The notes under the pieces: generated by a model
What the model saw: the letters and a program-made list of their open reading frames with translations, nothing else
Told to the model about the DNA's origin: nothing
Databases searched by the model: none
Source: Sphagnum compactum
Lineage: Eukaryota
Reading direction: 5' to 3'
DNA length: 64,000 bases
Assembly: GCA_965153455.1 (NCBI GenBank)
Contig: OZ234493.1
Span: 25,100,213 to 25,164,212, forward strand
In this document: positions 1 to 41,537 of the stretch, one piece after another
Position numbering within the stretch: the stretch's first letter is position 1
How the letters are laid out: the number at the start of each line of letters is the position of its first letter
Position numbers and translations under genes: made by a program

Positions 1-8
1 GAAAACCT

Positions 9-785
9 AACAATGAGTAGGGTGCATTGACTTGGTTTGAGAATTTTTGGAGCTACGATGCAAAGGTTATTGATTATTGAATCATTTTCTTGGTAAACCT
101 TAATAAAATTATAAATAAAAAATGTATTTGAATCTAAGGGTTTACTTGGTGCTGTTGGAAAATAATTGATGAATCAAATTTAATGAAGTTTATTTAATAA
201 TTTTCACATTTAAGGTGCGGAAAAGATTGAATTTTGAATGAATCTTGTTTTTGAAAATTCAATCAATTTTTTTTTAAATGGGTTTAGAAGGGAAAATGAA
301 TTGAGTGTGTTCACACTTGGGGCCATCAACACATGTTACATTATTCATTCATGAAGGAAGGTAGTTTGTTTTGTTTTTTCACAATGAAATCTCCCAAACC
401 ATAGCATTTTACGTTATGCTATGGGACATATCATCATAAAGTTTTCAATGAGTAGGGGTGCACCAACTTGGTTTAAAATGTTTGGAGTTATGGTGTGGAA
501 TTTATCCATTATTGAAGCATGTTTTCATTGAATTTATTAAAAAAACCAATATTGAAAACTATGTTGGAATATGGGGGCTTTCTTGCTATTATTGGAAAGC
601 CCTCACCAAGTTTGATTTAATAATGTTGATTCCATAATTTTGAGACCTAAAATGGGAACTATATTATTGAAGTATTAGTGGGTATTGTTGTTATAAATTC
701 AAACAAATTACAAAAAGGGGTTAGGAAGGTAAATTCAATTGAATGCATTCAAACTTGGGCCAATGACATAAGGTACATTAGTGTT
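9..785. repeat. Two diverged tandem copies of an interspersed repeat (about 9-345 and 446-785)
   Basis: caatgagtagggtgca..acttggttt..tttggag..attattgaa.cat and ..acacttgggg/aaacttgggcca..acatta both occur twice, about 440 bp apart. Confidence 0.6.
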
Positions 786-1429
786 TAATGAGTTTTTATC
801 ATAATTTTAAACAAATATTAAGATATCATGTATATAAAAATGAATAAACATTAGAGTTGCACAATATTATTAGTTATGTATTAGTACTTGATATGTTTTA
901 ATGATGTACGTAAAAATAATAAATCACATGTGTATTGAACATAAACATTATTACTAACATATATTTAGAATTTCCTAAATTTTATTTTGGAATTAAAATT
1001 TAATATTTATATGCAAGAAAAAAACCATTCATTTGTACAAATAAAATTTACATGAAAGTTAATGTTATTATAATTTTAAATGAAAATGAAAATTAAAGTT
1101 GCCTACTAATTGTTTAACCTAGTTGAAATAAATAGTTACAAACAAAACTACATTTGATTTGTCCTTTAATACATTTTATCATCCATATATGTGTGTTGTT
1201 GGTGTCATTAAAATAATTGAACATTAATCAATGTTTTGACTATATGCCAATTAAAGAACCTTAGATGCCAAAAATATTTTTAAAATGACACTTTCCTGAA
1301 AACATGTTTCACATTGTTTATCAACATACTTGAGTATTCAACTTGTAGACATTGTTGATGTTGAGAATATTCGGTAATTGACCAACTAGTTGAAAAATGT
1401 TTTCGACTATGTACCAATATAGTAATTGG

Positions 1430-2316
1430 AACACTTTCATAAATAAAGCTTTTGGAGTGCATTTGATTGCCAATAGATGAAGTTAGTTCTTTCAAGTTGG
1501 AACACCCTTCTAAATAAAGCTTTTGGAGTGCATTCAATTGGCCAATAGATGAAGGTAATTCTTTCAAGTTGGAACACTAACACAAATAAAGCTCTTGGAG
1601 TGCATTCAATTGGCCAATAGATGAAGGTAATTCCTTCAAGTTGCACACCTTGACAAATAAAACTTTTCGAGTGCATTCAATTGGCCAATAGATGAAAGTA
1701 GTTCTTTCAAGTTCAAACACCTTGACAAATCAAGTTCTTGGAGTGCATTCAATTAGTCAATAGATGAAGGTAATTCTTTCAAGTTCAAACACCTTGACAA
1801 ATCAAGCTCTTGTAATGCATTCAAGTGACCAATAGATGAAGGTAGTTCTTTCAAGTTCGAACACCTTGACAAATGAAGCTCTTGGAGTGCATTCAATTGG
1901 CCAATAGATGAAGGTAGTTCCTTCAAATTGGAACACTTTGACAAATCAAGCTCTTGTAGTGCATTCAATTGGCCAATAGATGAAGGTAGTTCCTTCAAAT
2001 TGGAACACCTTGACAAATCAAGCTCTTGTAGTGCATTCAATTGGCCAATAGATGAAGGTAATTTTTTCAAGGTGGAACACCCTGACAAATCAAGTACTCG
2101 TAATTGTAAACAATCAAACAAATTACATGGCAACTTTCGAATCATGCAATTTTTGAGGCACAACCACTTAACATTATTCAAATTTCGCCCTTGAATGCAA
2201 TTTTCCACAATAGTTGGTGAAGCTTCTGTTAAGTCAACCAACCTAAGGTTGCGAAATCCCTTGGAGCCGATTTGGGACAATGTAGCCAAATTGACACATT
2301 TTTTCAATGAGATGCC
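1430..2316 (-). pseudogene. Degenerate LRR domain of the HNL gene (about 9 tandem 72-bp / 24-aa LRR units)
   Basis: LKELPSSIGQLNALQELDLSxCSN repeats; the motif aatagatgaa recurs about every 72 bp from about 1471 to 2047. Disrupted by TAA 1753-1755, TAG 1577-1579 and 1-nt frameshifts near 1643 and 1465. Confidence 0.9.
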
Positions 2317-5300
2317 TTATAAAATTTCCACCACCTATCACATGAAATGAAAACAAAAGGATTATCAATATTAAAAAAACATTTCATCTTATTATTAATT
2401 TTTCTTAAAAAAACATTATTCATAAAATCAAGATTCAAAGTTAAAACATTTGTTTTTGGACATTACAAAATTCATAGGAAATCGAAATAAAATTATAAGA
2501 TTGAAATAATATGGTGACAACCTCGTTGTTTTGTAAAACGAAATTTGACTCATTTGCTTTCCATATAAATCGATTCATAATTGGAAGTTCCATTGCAATA
2601 TTTTGACCCATGTCTCGTAATTGGTCATGTATGTACAAGATTCCACCTTCTCCGCGTTGGATTAAAGATCTATGTTGTAAATTTTGCAATGCAAATTTTG
2701 GGTGTAAATAATCTCCATTCCACGCTCGACAAATTGTTTTTATTTTCAAACCACCAAAGAAACAAGCAATATCCAAAAACATGCTTTGATGTTCCTTATC
2801 CAAATACTCATAAGAAATCTTCAATTTACTCCAAAGTTTTTCATTATCATTGCCCCCGGTGAAACTTTGCCCACTTTTCAATTTGTTCAATGCGCCTTCC
2901 CAGATTTCCAATTCCTTAGTATCGCACAAAAAAGAACCCAATACTTTAAGACTTAAAGGGAGCCCTCCACAAGCTTTTATAATCTCCTTACATATATCTT
3001 TGAAATATTTTGTTGGAACTTGATTTGCATTACCGAATGCATGGAACATAAAAAGTTCCATTGCTTGCTCCTCCTCCAAAGATTTCATGATCATTTTTCC
3101 ATCTTCACTTACGTGAGATTTTAGACTTTGCCAATTTCGACAATTCACAAGTATTCTACTTTTAGAAGCTCCATTCCTAGCAGCCTTATCAATGAAAATT
3201 GGCAAGGACGTAAGGTTCTCCACTTTACCAACATCATCCACCACCACTAACACTTTCTGTGATATCATACATTGCCTAATTTTGTCAAAGTCTTCTTTGT
3301 TCACATTTTCATCCTTGGATATTTTTTTGTCACACAAATCATGTAGGAGTTGTTTTATGACATCATTGATATTGTCCTTTGAATTCACATCCTCCAAAAA
3401 ACTACATTTGTCATATTGGTTGTGGAACAAATGATAGAATTTTTTGCTCAAAGTGGTTTTCCCAATTCCCCCCATTCCAACCAAACCAACAATAGATTCC
3501 TTTTGTAACAAGATGTTTATATCTTTTGCTTTGTCAATCAACGCCACCTCATGACATGGCAAAGGTGGAAGTAATATATTTTTCTGTCAAAATTCACAAA
3601 ACAAAGGTCATTTATATGTTATCTTTCTTATTTGATAACCAATATATATGACATTGCATATGCGATACACGTCAAGTGTGCTACGACCTAAAATGTATAA
3701 AATAACATGAACATATATGAAGTCAAAAGACTTAGATTTGATGTTTTTACCTCCATACATATTTTCAAACATTTTAACAATAAATAATAGCTTGGATGAT
3801 TTTTGTTTGGTGGCTTGCAAATTGTCAAGTGATTAGCATCTTCAATTCTATAGTGGTTGTTGTTTGACAATTGAATAGCTGAGGCATATGGCACTAAAAT
3901 TCCCTGCATGAGCAAAAGATTAAGTTAATGGAACTCATTGACTTTTTTGTTCAACTATGCTTGAACTTATAAGTAACACAGTAAATCCAAATGGTGGTGG
4001 AAACTATAGCTTAATAACTATTGATGTTTGAATAACAATGAAATATTTTGTGTGAAAGTAATTTCTTTCAACCCTTTGGCAAGCAAATCACAAAGTTATT
4101 GGTTTTTAATTTCATTAATCTTACATGTTTTAATGATGATATGAATTTCATGACAAATATTTGTATGGAATTGATTTGATGAAGGGAAAATTTAAAACGT
4201 ATTTCATGATGTTTGAAGTGAATCAAATTTTCTTTCCATCAATAGTATTTCATGAAACAAAGTTCATAAAACACATGACCCATTCACCACATTATTGTAT
4301 TAAGAAGTATTGAGTACATGATCCCACACAAATTTTGACGATACAAAAAATGTTCAATTAATGAACTTAGTTGGATAACTTTCGATGTGGTGAAATGAAA
4401 ATCTTACCCAATTCTCGTCGAGTGGTAATCCTTCACCAAATGCATAAATGTTGACGTCTTCAGGAATAGCATTTTTAAAATCTGTTGAAAGGTGTTCCAT
4501 TTGTGGGTTGAAAGATTTTAAACTTTTTAAAAAACCAGATTGGGTTGCACACTTGTTGACTGCGTTGATTTGTTGATGTTGCCAAATGAAATAATTTGAT
4601 AAATATTGGGTACCGCCAACATGTGGTACACCGTAAAATATTACACCTTTAACATTGTTCAAAAATTTCTTACAACATTTGTGGACTTCATCATCCAAAC
4701 TATTTCTTGACCTTTGATGTACATGTTTGTGAGCTTCAACCACCAAGCTTTTGAGTATAAGACCTCCAAAACTATAACCAATTAATGCCACCGGTCCATC
4801 CCAAAGCGATTGATAACTACAAATATTCAACAATGCATAAAATTCCATTATCAACATTGTATTAACATGTACAAATTTGTCCTATTGTACTTGGGGACAA
4901 TTTTCCAATTCCCACATGACCTAAACCATAAGTTCGTAATTGATTTGCTTCTCATTTGTCATTTATTAATTCCATTAATTTACCTAAAAAATGTGACAAC
5001 CATGTTTTGGTAAAACAATTATAATGTACAAGTATGTAGGCGTTTACGTTCTTGTGTTAATGCACAATTCATCTTCTGTATTACCTTGGAAATATTGTTG
5101 AAATAAATTTTAACAAAAAAAAAAACACTTTTTTTGAAATATATTTTTTGCAATGAAATGGATGCAAATTTTTTACACATGTATTAATAGAATTTAATTT
5201 AATTCAATTCCATTACCAAAGATAAAGCTCCAAAAAGCTCGACCTAAAAGTTGCCATCAAAACCAAACTAGTTGTACCATGAGCTTATAATATGAACATA

Positions 5301-7159
5301 GATTTTGTTTTTATCTTCAAACAAGAACATTTGCACATAAGCCCCATTTTATGTTCTCCTACATGAATCTAACAATTCAAATAAATTGAAACTTGTTGGT
5401 GTGTATCACAATACTAACACACATGAACAATTAACTCCTGCACAACATTTAAGAAATTCTAAAGATCTAAACAATTTTTTTTAATATACATAAGGAGAAG
5501 TCATTAATGTGTCCTTAAATAGAAGAGATTGTCACACCTTGAATTTGTAACCAAACTTTGAATGAGGTTTTTGCCAATTTCAATCACATCATTGTGAACA
5601 CTTGTCACAATTTTAGAATCATAAGACAATGATAAAATTCGAACATTGTTGTTCAAGTCTTCAGGTAGCCACTTTTCTGGCCAACATATGCACTCTTCTC
5701 TATTGTTGGTGGGGCACGTTGTCCATGTTTCCTTCCATTCATCATTTGTGCCAAAAGCAATCCCATGAAAAAAAACGATGGTCAAGTTTGGATTATTGGT
5801 ATTGCAAGTGGGATTTAAATCATGCACTACATATTTCTGCAAAGAAAATGAAAAAGAGTCAACACAATTGTTCAAACATCTATTGAAAATTATTTGACTA
5901 TACAATAAATTGGAAACATGCAATATACAAATTATAGTAGTTAGATAAAAGCAATAATTAATTGAAAATATTAAGTCTAACAAGAAGACAATAATAGATG
6001 AATTGGAGAATGCCAAATGTATCTTGCATAACTAACAAATGAAAATCATTCACATGCGTCAAAGTTTCAAAACATAGTTCAATTAAGTAAATACTGTTAC
6101 ATAGTAGGTCAAACATATGTCCATCAATAAAGGTTAATTCTCAGAATTGGATTCTTTCAAGTTTGGGTCGATTAACTAAGCCATCTAGTTTGGATTATTT
6201 GTATTTCATGACATTTTCCCCGACATTTGGGCCACTAAGGCCTCTCACCCCTAAGGAATTGGGACACAAACCCAAATAAGAATGTCCAAGAGCAATTTAA
6301 TAATTTACGTTAGGTTGTTGGATTATGACTACACATTGAACTTAACTCAAATCTATAAGGAAAGTTCCAATCTTTACAAGTTCAATATATTCTTAGTTAA
6401 TGCCAATTGACGAATTTCCCTTTCACCGATTCTACTTGTTTTGGCAAGTGAGTCGCTGGCCTAATGTAAGAGGCTATAATGATGACTCCATTTCCTACTG
6501 TTTAAAACATCATTTCATATCGTTTTTATCTAAACAAACAAACTGGAAAGTAGGCAAAGTGAAAATGTATGGCAAGGAAGCTTGTAAATGATTTAGGACA
6601 TTCAGGTACCCTAGTGGCTAAAGGGTATGGTTGCGAAGCTGTTGGCTGGGAGTTCAAATCTGAACTAGACCACCTCCTCCTGATGCTTTGTGAGGACAAT
6701 AAGCTATGGTGGTTGTATGGGTCACGGAAACTTGTCAACACCCAAACAAAATTAAAAAAGCAAAGAAAAATCAAATTGCAACATGTAACTTGGGAAAGCC
6801 GAAGAAAAAACTGTGCAAAGAAAGCTCATCATAAGAGTAAGAAAAAGCACCACATTGCCGTGCCATCCAGAGCTTGAAGGAGCATTTTCAACAGGGACCA
6901 AAGGTGTCTCAATCGCAGTAGGTATCTGCACAATATCTTTACATGGGAAAGCCCAAGAAAAAACTGTGCAAAGAAAGCTCATGATAAAATTAAGAAGAAG
7001 CACCACATTGCTGTGCCATCCAGAGCTTGAAGGAGCATTTTCAGCGGGGACCGAAGGTGTCTCAGTCGCAGCAGGGATCCGCCCAACATCTCTCTTTCTT
7101 TTTGGTGGCCCTTGTGAAAGATCAACTCCTTTTCCTTTGAGGCCATATGAATTTCCCAT
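2317..7159 (-). CDS. Alpha/beta-hydrolase-NB-ARC(-LRR) NLR-type immune receptor (HNL). Model: complement(join(7004..7159,6851..6925,5538..5836,4408..4816,3751..3903,2522..3583,2317..2334)), ending at a premature TAA before the LRRs
   Basis: Hydrolase motifs: IVFFHG (oxyanion region), WPEKWLPEDL, nucleophile elbow GYSFGG, FYGVPH, DANHLTICKP. NB-ARC motifs: P-loop GMGGIGKT, kinase-2 VLVVVDDV, RNBS-B SRILVNCR, GLPL, RNBS-D FLDIACFF, MHD variant IHD. All GT-AG junctions from 5836 to 2334 are phase-compatible. The two 5'-most exons are more tentative. Confidence 0.88.
6790..7082. repeat. 153-bp tandem duplication (exon plus intron unit of the HNL 5' region)
   Basis: tgggaaagcc..aaaaaactgtgcaaagaaagctcat..aagcaccacattgc.gtgccatccagagcttgaaggagcattttca repeated with period 153. 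Confidence 0.9.
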
Positions 7160-8688
7160 ATTTCACACTACTGAAATTCCTTTTGCTCACTGCTCTCAAA
7201 AATATTTTTCTCTTAACCTTTTGCTCTCATAAAACCTGCTACAAATCCTTTGCCATCCCAATAGCATACCCAAGGTATGATGGGTGTCCCTCACATCACA
7301 GATTCCTGCAAGCTAAGCTGATCTTTCCACTAGATCTCCCCAAAAAACATCAACCCCTTTCCTCTTCACGATCTCCCTGGAATTCCCACTCTCTTTTCTT
7401 ACTCCTTTTTCGACTTCTCTCCCGAATGTTTCTTCTTCTTCTTCATTTTCTCCTCCCCCAGAAACTTCTAGAAGGGTTTTGCCGGGACTCTTCAGACTGT
7501 AGCATACGCGCTTTACCGATTTCTTGGCCCATGATTATCATCATGACTTTTGTTCACATCCACACACCGACCTTTCTTTTACTAAAAAACCAGAGCTGGA
7601 AAAAAGCTAAGTCATCAATTTAAAAAGTGTTAAAATCAAATGCTTTTTGAGATTCTCAATAGCCAAAATTCAACCAAATTCAAAGAAAAATCGTCAGAGT
7701 TCCACACATGGGTTTCAAGTAGGTAGCCAACAAAAGAGAAATATGTTAAAAAAATTCGAATGCCATATTTAGCTCATAGGCAAATCTGACTAAATCTTCC
7801 TACCGATGATAGCCACTTGGGCCATATCTCAAAACTGACCCAAAAATTATTGATCCACACGTTTCCTGCTGTTGGCTGATTTCAGCCAGTGCATTCTTGA
7901 AGCGCTCTGCCAGAGCTCATGTTGCAGGCAATGCATGATTAATTGGGGCTTGGGGGAACCGGCCAGGGTGAATTGACCTCCACATTGGGATCACTGTAAA
8001 AATCCCCAAAACCCATTGAAATGGCCATATTAGGCCCCAAAAATTATGAATTTGGACTTTGGGACCCTGATTTAGTCTAGGGAAATGATATTTATAAATA
8101 TTTAGAATATTTACGAGCAATTTAAATGGGCTTTGCGGGGTCAAGTTGCCTTGGTTGGGTGAACCTGGCCTACATTAGAACCACGGTGGAAATCCCAAAG
8201 TTTTTGGGGGCAGCTTCAAAACATTGTAGATACATGTAGTGTCCTTAGACAAAATCAGGGTCTCTGAATCAAAACCTGAAACCCTAAACCTAAACCCTAA
8301 ACTCCAGAGGCCTCACACAAGAAGGTGAGTGTACCAGTTTAGGTTTGCCCTGCCCAGTGGCTATGATCGGAGGAGCCTGGGGGCAGAAGGAAAAATTACA
8401 TGTACGGTCATAGCAAATAAATTCCGAGTGGAAAAACCCCTGTACAGAGCAGTGATTTTTCTTGGTGGATTTTCGCACTGTTGGCTACAAGTTGTTTTTG
8501 GAAGAAACTGGGAAATTTCGTCTAATAGTGTGAATTTGAGAAAAAAAAATTCTCAGAAAATGGAAAAAATGGAGAAAGTTTACAGACCACAAATTTGAAA
8601 AACAAGAAAAAGAAAAAGAAGACACCGGTACAGAGGTATATATGTGTGCACTATAAATAAACAATGGAAAAACATGTTGTGAAACTAA

Positions 8689-8991
8689 GGGCAACTGTAG
8701 ACGAGGGTCCGAGGTCCAGAGACAAATGAATGGAAGCAATCTTATTGGTCGGAAGCTTTAAATTGGTCCCAAGGACTTTAGGCCAGGGTCCAAGACCAAA
8801 TTGAGGCTAATATGGCACCTGTTTTGGAGGAAAAATCAACTGATTCCGACAAAAAGACAGCTCCTGATTTGGAGAAACAAGAATCAGGCTGAGGACCCAG
8901 GTACACTCCAACTCAAGGATTCAATTTGCTTCACATGAGTCCGAATTGGGTCCTAGGACATTGGACCCTGGACCCTCGTCTCAAGTGGCCC
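8689..8991. mobile_element. Tourist (PIF/Harbinger) MITE, 303 bp
   Basis: About 28-bp imperfect TIRs (gggcaactgtagacgagggtcc / ggaccctcgtctcaagtggccc) flanked by TAA TSD at 8686-8688 and 8992-8994. Confidence 0.85.
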
Positions 8992-9672
8992 TAATGGTGT
9001 TTTACTGCAAGACCCTTTGACTCCTTATGTGGAGAACCACACAATCAGCACGATTGACATCTGGTGGAAAGTGCGAACATGTTGGATCCGAGATGTGAGG
9101 CCTTAGCCTAGCGAAAGCCAGTAACTTTTTGCTCATTTTTGGTTTTCTGACTTGCTTTGTGTTATGGTGCCCGCAACCAAGTCTGTTGTTTGTGAAAGAA
9201 TTGGGGAAACCTGTAATTAATGGCCAGGCCGAACCTGCACCTACATTAACACATTCACCTTCTTAGTGAGCCCTTGTTTCCCTGATACTAACTCCAAGAC
9301 GCATCAAAGAAATGTTAAATTTGAACTCCGAGACCCTGATTTAGTCTAAAAAAGTTGGGGCCAACTTTGAGCATTTTTGGCTTTTTGTCTGGCCCTGCAA
9401 AGTTACTAATAAATGCTACAACATTGGCCACAAGGGTTGCAAATTGGCTTCCCAAATTTGATGGTATCCTTTTCTTCAGCCTTGGGAACAATACAAGGCC
9501 ATAAAGTTCAGCATTTATTAATAACTTGGGGCAGATTGAAAAGATTTTTTCTGTTTCAGCCTTGACTCCTAGTGTAATTTAGCGCATGGGGCTGATTTCA
9601 ACTTTTGCACGAATAAGAATGCGTGATGTGAGTTGAACATTGGCCTCAACTCCTAGTGTAAAGTGGGCCTAA

Positions 9673-38708: not shown

Positions 38709-41537
38709 ATGGTGCAGTCTTCAGTTAGTGAGGATGATGGAGGTGGTGGAAGAAGAGGGGGAGAAGAAGAAGAACAGCAGCAGCAGCAGGAGGAGGAAGA
38801 GGAAGAGGAAGAGGAGAATGAAGGAGCAAACGAGATCACGAGTAAGAAGGCAACCAGGGAGCAGGTTGCAGCGATGCGGAGGGAGAGCGTGGCGTTGCGA
38901 GCACAAATAGCTGCGGCGCTGGTGCATCAGCAGATGGCAGAGGTAGGAGGAACGGCGGCGGCGGCGGCGGCAGATCCCCGTGCAGCAAGGCGCAGGGAGT
39001 ACCCCGTCTTCACACTAGTATGTCTCTTCTGTCTCTCTTCTGCTTCTGCTTCTGCTTCTTCTGCTGCTGCTGCAAAGATGGAAATTGTAGCTGCTGAGGG
39101 AGGGAGCTTCATAGAATTCTGAAACAAAAGCAGCCTGGGGGTTGTAATTTAGAGCTACGGGGATGATCCGAAGCAGCAGCAGCTCATGACGTCCACAGCA
39201 GCCGGAGGCAGCAAACTGAAGTATTGTGGATCATTGCAGACGACAAAGCAGCAGCAGCAACAGCAAATCACGTCAGCCCAAATTTGGCAACAACAACAAC
39301 ATCATGACCACAGTGCACAACAATTCGGCCTAGATTATCAGCAGCAGCAGCAGCAGCAATTCATGGCTCAGGATCATCACATCACCCCTGGAAACAGCTT
39401 CCGATCACATGAGCTGCCTGCACAAATCATGAGAAGCAGCAGGATGATCAGTCCACTCCCAGCAACTCCACTCACTGGGTTAACCCCAAATGGAAAGCAG
39501 CAGCTACAGCATCTAAACAGATCTTCAGCTTCAAGCCCAAATGGAAAGAAGAAGCAGCAGCAAAACAGATCTTCTTCAAGTCCAAAGTCTGCAAAATTGG
39601 AGAAATATCGTCACTGTGATGCTGCTGCTCCAGTGTCACCTATCAGCATATATTCAGGCATGGAGATCAATAATTTGCAGGATTCAAAGATGACGATGAT
39701 GATGATGATGGACAACACTACTGCTAGTACCACTACTCTGGGAGGAAGAAGCAGAACTTCACCAGGGACAATGTCGAGCATTGAATCTGGCTCTAAGATT
39801 CATACTCCTACTGCAATGGTGGGGCTAGCAAGGGACATTGGAAGCCGAGGGAAGATGATTGCTGCTGCTGCAGGTGGTAGCAGCAGCTGCACTACTGCTG
39901 CTGCATTGCCAACAACTTCATCAGCCTGGCACAACTGCGCCAGTGGACTATCCTCCGTGGTTCCAGTCGCTGGGACTGCTAGTTTATATGCCAGTGGTAA
40001 TACCTTCTTTCTTCTTTGCAAAATTTGCATTGGAAGCTCCTCCTTTGCCAATTTCAATCTGTGATTTTTGTGTTTGTCTTTCCCACCCAAGTTTGTTTTG
40101 CTTCTGAAATGTTGGGAATTGTGTTTGCAAATGTCATTAGAATGGTGATTTAGCAATTTCTGAGACAAGGAGTTGGGTTTTGGATTTGGGGGGGGGGGAA
40201 TGTGGCTTGCCATAGGGCCAATCATCAATCCTCCAGAGACTCCTCCACCACAGCCACTGGTTGAAGTCGCACTCAAGCAACCACCACCACCACCACCACC
40301 ACAGCCTAATAGTAGTAGTAGTGGGTACTTTAATTTTTTGGTTTGGGGTAGTAAGAAGAAGGGGTTGTTGAAGAAGAAAGGCCATGGAACAGCAACTTCT
40401 GAAAGTGGGAGCATCATTAGCAACAGCAACAACACAGAGCAAGAGAAAATTGTGAATCTGGAAAACACGACCAAGATGTTGGAGTTGAAGCTTGAGGAAT
40501 CAAATAAAAAGAGAGCTGCAGCTGTTTATGAAATTAGGGCTTTGCGATTGGCGATGGAGATTTTAGATGGTAATTTCAAGCAGTTGCAAGCACAATGCCA
40601 AGAGTTACAACAGCAAAGATTTCAGGATGCACAGATGATGAAGAAGGATCTTGAATTGGAACTAGATGATGAAAATGATGAAGACATGATTGGTACAGAG
40701 TCGACCACTGCAGCTCCATCTGTTTGGACAGCAGCTCACATAGGACATGGTAGTAGTAGTCATCATCCAAGAGTAACACCTGAGCTTTTCTTAACAACAC
40801 TTGAGAATGCCAAACGCAGCTTGAGGAAGCTAACAGATGTGATATGTCACCACATACGGGAGCTTGGAGGCTCCTTCACACATGTGATTGCCTGTCTTTT
40901 GGAGCAACATAAAGTTGGGATCAACAAGCCGGCAAGTCAAATGCCAAGATTGATGAAACTGCTTTACTTTGAAGCGTTTCTGAACCAGATTATGTTTGAG
41001 AGCTTTGAGAACGTGAATTTTGAGTCGAATGGAGCCACCACCATCTTCAACCAGGAGGCATTACAGGAGGCAAGTTTCCAATCTTTCCTAGATCTGAAGA
41101 AACAGAATTGGCCTGATATTGAGAAGGCCTTAAGCAAAGCACAAGGTGTGATTGTGAACACAACTTTTCACCGCTTCTTTGTAGTGAGAATGGAAATAGT
41201 CATATCTCAGCTCGGGAAGCTGGGTGAAACAAATATGCCTGTGTCTGTAATTACAGCTTTCTACAAGGCAGTTAAAGCTGTATGGCTCGTGCATCACTTA
41301 GCATTTGCATTTGGCCCTGCTGCTGTCACCATATTCCGAATTGCGCCAGGATCCAAATTCAATCCAATGTATATGGAGGAAGTAGTAGTAGCTCCATTGT
41401 CAGCGAACTCCAACAAACAAGTCATTAACAGTGGTCTCCCCTATGTGTCAATCATGGTAAGCCCAGGCTTCATTGTAAACAAGGAGGTGTGTAAATGCAA
41501 AGTCTTGTGCAGCAGCAAACCAAAACCTTTGACATAG
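38709..41537 (+). CDS. IRK-interacting protein-like (IRKI/GIL1 family), about 824 aa; join(38709..39017,39153..39996,40216..41537)
   Basis: N-terminal REQVAAMRRESVALRAQIAAAL. The family motif YPVFTL|SYGDDP is restored by splicing. Coiled coil, then EAFLNQIMFESFENVNF, VWLVHHLAFAF and MVSPGF. Junctions are in phase; poly-Q/E/P tracts present. Confidence 0.85.

Follow-up and report, generated by a model that had tools for sequence, protein, structure and literature searches.

Hydrolase-headed receptors of the nucleotide-binding leucine-rich repeat type (hydrolase-NLRs, termed HNL or Hyd-NLR) were described as a class by Xue et al. (2012), partly on the basis of their introns (PMC3352924); according to that paper, phase-0 introns lie between the hydrolase and the nucleotide-binding site (NBS), between the NBS and the leucine-rich repeats (LRRs) and within the hydrolase, whereas receptors with an N-terminal TIR domain (TIR-NLRs, TNLs) carry a phase-2 intron before the NBS. 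A later survey (Chia et al. 2024, PMC11218826) places most bryophyte hydrolase-NLRs near bryophyte TIR-NLRs, and reports that in N. benthamiana two Marchantia hydrolase domains cause ion leakage and a cell death that resembles the hypersensitive response (HR). A review finds the hydrolase head most abundant in Marchantia, Sphagnum and Ceratodon, describes its biochemistry as unknown, and counts lipid binding and EDS1-like functions among the open possibilities (PMC10952240); the abundance of hydrolase-NLRs in Sphagnum is already in print in these last two sources. Here we analyze a gene of this type on the minus strand of a 64,000-nt stretch of Sphagnum compactum DNA (assembly GCA_965153455.1, contig OZ234493.1), the whole of which is called the window and to which all positions refer. 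We consider it likely that the locus is a six-exon bryophyte hydrolase-NLR gene that is either LRR-less as written or a decaying paralog.

The exon model was derived from a tblastn comparison with P0001, splice dinucleotides and intron phases. P0001 is the nearest relative, an S. compactum protein of 1138 aa with hydrolase, NB-ARC and LRR regions, 95.7% identical to the window gene over the N-terminal 392 aa and 96% over the NB-ARC. Exon 1, located through the same tblastn comparison, starts at the ATG at 7159, is preceded by an in-frame stop at 7165-7163, occupies 6851-7159 in its long form, and encodes a disordered N-terminus. The hydrolase is encoded by exon 2 (5538-5836), with an oxyanion-type VFFHG at 5776-5762, exon 3 (4408-4816), with GYSFGG at 4779-4762, an invariant GVPHVGG at 4632-4612 and AFGEG at 4443-4429, and exon 4 (3751-3903), with EDANHLTICKP at 3843-3811 and a linker helix. 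Exon 5 (2522-3583) encodes the NB-ARC and a Roq1-type winged helix, and exon 6 (1426-2334) an interrupted LRR region built from 72-nt units (9.3 copies, Tandem Repeats Finder). All introns are GT..AG, with phases 0, 2, 0, 0, 0 along the gene, and the frame is kept; the introns at 4817-5537, 3904-4407 and 3584-3750 have phases 2, 0 and 0, and those at the hydrolase/NBS boundary (3584-3750) and the NBS/LRR boundary (2335-2521) are both phase 0. The sequence-only reading had confined the gene to 2522-5836, positions that are exactly those where the NB-ARC exon stops (its 3' end) and where the first of the hydrolase exons opens (its 5' end), and had overlooked the upstream start exon with its ATG at 7159, the LRR exon beginning at 2334, and the LRR interruption. 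The open reading frame of the exon it took as the first (5836-5538) lacks an in-frame ATG, so that the start of the gene has to lie further upstream.

Transcript evidence over 1400-7300 was taken from X24, a stranded polyA run that bears the same species label, and from the metatranscriptome contig sets X1-X3, with reads and contigs placed at ≥96% identity. The first mates of X24 all lie on the plus strand, which in most stranded libraries denotes minus-strand RNA, and depth is 45-198 in exon bins versus 0-3 in intron bins; at the three joints that connect exons 2 to 5, exon depth is 60-180. The hydrolase and NB-ARC exons are part of one transcript type, because junction reads join the former to the latter: the joint 3583|3751 is crossed by 87 X24 reads with 45 start positions. 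Within the hydrolase, 65 X24 reads span the joint between exons 2 and 3 (4816|5538) and 54 that between exons 3 and 4 (3902|4407), and downstream 36 reads link exons 5 and 6 (2332|2520). The sequence-only reading is thereby borne out on its claim that three hydrolase exons splice in phase to an NB-ARC exon, and its assignment to the known bryophyte hydrolase-NLR class agrees with the domain order, the phase-0 introns and the Sphagnum relatives.

At the 5' end, exon 1 terminates at 7007, 7004 or 6851 through alternative in-frame donors, produced by a tandem duplication of 153 bp at 6791-7091 (2.0 copies, 89% matches, Tandem Repeats Finder) that copies the 3' end of the exon together with its donor, so that the peptide ...SSSGWH[SG]N is doubled in translation. 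Joints between exons 1 and 2 were found at 5836|6851 (11 X24 reads), 5836|7004 (10 reads), 5836|7007 (14 reads) and, with non-canonical ends, 5835|7003 (15 reads); the distal donor accounts for 11 reads, as against 24 for the proximal donors with canonical ends (7004/7007) and a further 15 for 7003. With the distal donor the protein gains 51 aa, 21 of which form a hydrophobic stretch (long-isoform insert, 7006-6944), and the same long form of exon 1 occurs in several paralog models from other Sphagnum species, in which the HG motif falls at residue 123-124. The disordered N-terminus also contains a basic PPKRKRD (7108-7088) that resembles a nuclear-localization signal and is kept in most paralogs. 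N-myristoylation of the MGNSYG start was considered and dropped, as many paralogs do not keep Gly2 and begin MANS, MENS or MRNS.

Non-Trp kinase-2 motifs and RNBS-D motifs of the FLDIACFF type are characteristic of TNLs, and both are present in exon 5, which matches Pfam NB-ARC at E 1.1e-34 and WHD_ROQ1 at E 4.6e-12. Its motifs comprise the P-loop GMGGIGKTT (3478-3452), kinase-2 VLVVVDDVG (3253-3227), GGLPLS (GLPL), FLDIACFF (2779-2756) and an MHD-type IHD (2635-2621). Among solved structures the window NB-ARC scores highest against the TIR-NLRs Roq1 (139.5 bits), ADR2 (74.5) and RPP1 (70.8), followed by an RPW8-domain NLR (65.7), whereas coiled-coil NLRs (CC-NLRs, CNLs) all score 58.9 bits or less (Sr35 and CNL9 about 58-59, MLA13 55.5, ZAR1 51.2). 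The best 120 longer relatives of the NB-ARC exon are led by the Sphagnum family; 31 that follow carry TIR (PF01582), and none carries Rx_N or RPW8. The TNL-like character that the sequence-only reading had assigned to the NB-ARC from FLDIACFF and the non-Trp kinase-2 is thus supported by sequence comparison, which sides it with the TNL/HNL/PNL lineage against CNLs, in agreement with Xue et al. (2012) and Chia et al. (2024). Of the phylogeny against TNLs, CNLs and HNLs that it had proposed, the nearest-neighbor part was realized: in a FastTree analysis of 127 NB-ARC segments (178 of 305 sequences, for want of a match reaching 300 aa, were left out), which has no CC-NLR or RPW8-NLR outgroup and was used only for nearest neighbors and label scatter, the window is sister to P0001 with support 100 within a 54-row Sphagnum set.

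The head of the protein is probably a DUF676/PGAP1-like α/β hydrolase, as judged by remote similarity and by a fold taken from a paralog. The sequence-only reading had named it SERAC1/PGAP1-like, and this name holds only as remote similarity: the DUF676 score of window exon 3 (16.3 bits), like that of P0001 (18.6), lies below the Pfam cut-off of 20.3 bits. Other family members exceed that cut-off (paralog P0006, 22.7 bits; liverwort relative P0098, 38.2 bits), and P0191 matches PGAP1 at 27.7 bits. The protein that was folded is the paralog P0003 (335 aa), modeled with AlphaFold2 (AF2) from a 48-sequence alignment in place of the window's own domain, to whose first 383 residues it is 73.9% identical when the gap opposite the long exon-1 insert is counted. 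The model has a mean predicted local distance difference test score (pLDDT) of 80.7 and a predicted template-modeling score (pTM) of 0.80; residues 1-50 are disordered (pLDDT below 50), and residues 51-335 form a confident α/β-hydrolase core. A VIA-align search of 48,161 chains gave Legionella PlaB (6zth) as the best match (Z 16.9, root-mean-square deviation 3.1, 217 aligned residues), tied with dozens of esterases and lipases at Z 15-16, with 431 chains at Z ≥ 8; Foldseek against the PDB returned generic α/β hydrolases (E ~1e-6, template-modeling scores 0.3-0.6) and agrees on the fold only, so that no specific structural relative stands out in either search. A PDB profile search with the hydrolase alignment gave marginal matches, the best at E 0.043. 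The sequence-only claim that three exons encode an α/β hydrolase with GYSFGG, HG and DANHLTICKP accords with the located motifs and with this fold.

The positions of the conserved residues in the P0003 model are those of a serine hydrolase candidate. Strand 69-74 precedes the HG, strand 160-165 and helix 167-184 flank Ser166, the invariant P215-H216 comes after strand 206-212 and aligns marginally to PH(D/N)G of solved lipases, Glu279 ends strand 273-279, and Asp309 and His312 follow strand 304-307. His75, Ser166 and His312 (P0003 numbering) are all kept in 118 of 136 full-length domains, the window included, and of these 118 an acid is found at 279 in 117 and at 309 in 94. In the wider alignment the nucleophile Ser is present in 184 of 206 domains, the DANH His in 160 of 163, the FGEG Glu in 197 of 208 and the DANH Asp in 121 of 141. 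The window carries every catalytic-type residue, namely the His of HG, the Ser, the FGEG Glu and the DANH Asp and His, which in long-isoform numbering are His127, Ser218, Glu331, Asp361 and His364. The likely candidate triad in this model is Ser-His with either Glu (FGEG) or Asp (DANH), the acid being ambiguous. Across the 206 aligned domains the elbow opens with Gly in 102 cases and with Ala in 92; GYSFGG is shared by the window and stand-alone Sphagnum hydrolases (~310-400 aa, P0061-P0070), and most NLR-attached paralogs, including P0001, have AYSFGG.

By analogy with the TIR or CC domains of other NLRs, the hydrolase head would serve as the output domain: nucleotide-dependent oligomerization of the NB-ARC, as proposed for the family, would gather the N-terminal hydrolase domains, and Ser-His-acid hydrolysis of an ester or lipid substrate, or alternatively lipid binding, would then trigger cell death or another immune output. 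The sequence-only reading had proposed one form of this, a lipase or esterase that oligomerization would activate in the place of the TIR NADase. That catalysis is required for the output has, in our estimation, somewhat less than an even chance. Several points count against an enzymatic head. The DUF676 scores of the window exon and of P0001 are below the cut-off, as noted above; 18 of the 136 domains do not keep the His, Ser and His together, the nucleophile being replaced in some by Cys, Gly, Asp or Lys; and conservation of residues does not prove catalysis. A test of the catalytic serine of a plant hydrolase-NLR was not found in literature from 2023 on, although the supplements of PMC11218826 may hold mutants, and the word 'serine' is absent from the main text of that paper.

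These points lead to a second interpretation, in which the head is a non-catalytic scaffold or a lipid- or ligand-binding module that signals by binding, akin to lipase-like immune regulators. Such a role would suit the Ala that begins the elbow in 92 of 206 aligned domains and the 22 domains with a non-Ser nucleophile, it is in keeping with the lipid-binding and EDS1-like roles listed in the review (PMC10952240), and no activity data were found in literature from 2023 on. The joint retention of His, Ser and His in 118 of 136 domains, with the FGEG acid in 117 of those, is nevertheless the pattern expected under selection for catalysis, and Ala-x-Ser-x-Gly also aligns, marginally (E 0.043), to AHSMGG of the solved lipase 5ah0. 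We regard a purely binding role as unlikely, though a serious contender to a catalytic one.

The reading of the locus as an intact NLR receptor, which the sequence-only reading had implied, does not hold for the window as written. Exon 6 begins VVEIL and then meets TAA at 2319-2317 (codon 6), where P0001 has Glu; three-frame translation combined with the repeat register further revealed a TAA at 1755-1753 that replaces a Gln of the repeat, a 1-nt deletion near 1644, a TAG at 1579-1577 and a 1-nt deletion near 1468. With these three stop codons and two 1-nt deletions the C-terminal LRR is not in the same open frame, although its units are still recognizable (Pfam LRR_14, E 1.4e-23). In contrast, the 744 hydrolase and NB-ARC codons upstream of the LRR exon are open, without lesion, and retain all conserved motifs. 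Translated as written, the locus would encode a hydrolase-NB-ARC-winged helix protein of 749 aa, or of 697/698 aa with a short exon 1, that lacks an LRR. Position 2319 is C, giving the Glu codon GAA, in each of the 70 X24 reads that cover it and in every contig of X1-X3, as opposed to TAA in the window, and 10 of 10 X24 reads have Gly-Gln at 1755 and 1757; because the RNA has intact codons at these sites, the lesions are specific to the assembled copy or are errors. Lacking an LRR, the window's copy is either not a sensor or decaying.

The same RNA raises doubts about whether this copy is the one expressed, and the following observations weigh against the reading preferred here. Only 387 of 2340 X24 reads are ≥99% identical to the window, leaving 1953 below that level. 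The window letter is absent from the reads at 2319 (0/70), 2738 (0/98), 1755 (0/10) and 1757 (0/10), and likewise at 6891 (0/21) and 6919 (0/26). The reads may thus derive from an intact allele, another genotype or a close paralog, this copy itself being silent, or else the lesions could be variants of the assembled individual alone or errors of assembly. At many polymorphic sites the window letter is nonetheless found in about a third of the reads (e.g., 20/63 at 2099 and 33/103 at 2624). At 3210, close to kinase-2 in exon 5, 18 of 52 RNA reads have a 3-base in-frame gap, an allele or paralog variant.

A silent, recently dead pseudogene, with all placed RNA contributed by close paralogs and the open frame merely reflecting recent death, would account for the window-private letters seen in no read at those six positions and for the small proportion of near-identical reads. 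Weighed against it, the lesion density of the LRR exon (5 in ~300 codons) predicts ~12 lesions in the 744 open codons, in which none is seen, and at many polymorphic sites a third of the reads match the window. LRR-less hydrolase-NB-ARC models are moreover common in the family: 34 of 95 hydrolase-NB-ARC rows, the window included, have <150 aa after the NB-ARC, and among them a group of ~687-695 aa (the ~690-aa group) in several Sphagnum species stops right at the end of the NB-ARC exon, although these rows are automatic gene models of which some may be annotation artefacts. On the NB-ARC tree the LRR-less rows lie dispersed and require no fewer than 20 changes, compared with a mean of 28.1 after shuffling. 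We consider a dead pseudogene doubtful, yet deserving of real weight. A stronger version of the hydrolase-NLR reading, in which the head is a proximity-activated serine hydrolase that signals by ester or lipid cleavage and the LRR-less proteins are functional partners instead of debris, appears to us fairly unlikely when all of its parts are taken together.

An intact full-length receptor, whose LRR stops and frameshifts would have arisen in assembly or be variants that only the sequenced individual carries, draws on the unanimous GAA at 2319-2317 in the 70 reads and the X1-X3 contigs, on the 10 of 10 reads that restore Gly-Gln at 1757 and 1755, and on the open LRR region (~390 aa) of the ortholog-like P0001. 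It would, however, have to explain five independent lesions in ~850 bases versus none in the 744 upstream codons, and in the bin 1597-1793, where three of the five lesions lie, depth is down to 8; the reads needed only ≥96% identity for placement, and with 1953 of 2340 below 99% they could stem from a paralog or another genotype. We judge this explanation improbable. The notion that the hydrolase and NB-ARC exons belong to two neighboring genes, which the sequence-only reading had named as its own refutation, is rejected by the junction reads and retains next to no credence, since 87 reads with 45 different start positions bridge 3751 and 3583 across a GT..AG intron with the frame kept, no stop or start lies between the domains, and 62 of 77 homologs carry both.

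The hydrolase-NLR reading of the locus is placed in a wider setting by its relatives. The middle hydrolase exon has 77 matches among longer proteins, down to E 6e-86, all from Sphagnum or metagenomes; like the Pfam matches of exon 5, this lies well outside what chance would produce. Sixty-two of these carry NB-ARC, 34 with and 27 without LRR Pfam domains; the others are one LRR protein without an NB-ARC call, 13 hydrolase-only proteins (~310-400 aa) and two hydrolase-kinase fusions. HMMER with P0003 against 1.84 billion representatives yielded 1378 proteins at E ≤ 1e-3, of which 330 reach E ≤ 1e-10; ten matches were looked up, of which six are from bryophytes (Sphagnum, Ceratodon, Riccia, Marchantia paleacea, Calypogeia) and four from metagenomes or Logan. 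The hydrolase domain behaves as a mobile module. On other bryophyte proteins (P0042, P0049, P0105, P0115, P0136, P0157) its partners include a protein kinase (Sphagnum), an NB-ARC-LRR-kinase (Ceratodon, 2013 aa) and a caspase-type peptidase C14 (Marchantia paleacea), as well as B-lectin and DnaJ domains.

No further hydrolase-NLR copy was found in the window, as tblastn with 232 proteins matched only 1286-7296. Intron 1 contains a tRNA-derived-looking stretch at ~6590-6680 (region 6520-6720) with very high summed metatranscriptome contig depth, which one paralog model, P0030, reads as its N-terminus; ARAGORN found 0 tRNAs in the whole window and Rfam gave 0 matches at E ≤ 0.1 in 1-9000, and the stretch may be a SINE-like repeat (short interspersed element). 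Elsewhere in the window, an unrelated neighboring gene is represented by a 457-aa open frame with a GIL1/IRKI C-terminal domain (40164-41537, plus strand; Pfam E 1.2e-7), just upstream of which lie Gln-rich low-complexity frames (39153-40064).

Hydrolase-NLRs are among the few plant NLR classes in which the N-terminal output chemistry is still open, and Sphagnum, a keystone peatland genus, carries dozens of them. The window gene is an added member of a class known since 2012, with Sphagnum members surveyed in 2024, and its implied novelty is low; the locus adds little beyond the published surveys. What it offers is an RNA-checked gene model that includes the alternative 5' donors, a map of residues to target by mutagenesis, and a worked case of the hydrolase-NB-ARC form without an LRR, which is frequent, and the analysis contributes evidence that most members of the family retain the catalytic-type residues. 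If the hydrolase were catalytic and needed for cell death, it would represent a new NLR signaling chemistry, a point that is not specific to the window.

In comparison with known systems, the locus resembles the described HNL/Hyd-NLR class in its order of N-terminal α/β hydrolase, NB-ARC and LRR, in its phase-0 introns, including one inside the hydrolase, and in an NB-ARC nearer to TNLs than to CNLs; it differs in its interrupted LRR exon, an extra phase-2 intron in the hydrolase, and a 5' exon with a duplicated donor. With the TIR-NLRs Roq1 and RPP1 (7jlv, 7crb) it shares the sequence type of the NB-ARC and winged helix, as reflected in WHD_ROQ1 and the Roq1 score, whereas its N-terminus is an α/β hydrolase instead of a TIR NADase and its pre-NBS intron is phase 0 instead of 2. 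Its head is comparable to the DUF676/PGAP1-like putative serine esterases, DUF676 being the best Pfam family and PGAP1 matching some relatives, and marginal alignments show G/A-x-S-x-G-G and (V/T)-P-H-x-G motifs in common with two solved lipases, 5ah0 and 8yye. With generic α/β hydrolases (PlaB 6zth, esterases, monoacylglycerol lipases) it shares the fold over model residues 49-335; at 8-17% sequence identity, and with matches within 1 Z unit tied, no substrate can be inferred from them. Language-model neighbors comprise DUF676 clusters of Streptophyta, Ascomycota and bacteria, including 'DUF676/Sigma domain on NACHT-NTPases', which we treat as a lead only. The analogy to hydrolase/lipase-STAND effectors of fungi and bacteria drawn in the sequence-only reading is reasonable as a resemblance and carries no claim of common origin. 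The heads of the window gene and P0001 score below the family cut-off, and the partner NTPase of the window gene is a plant NB-ARC in place of the NACHT of the fungal proteins.

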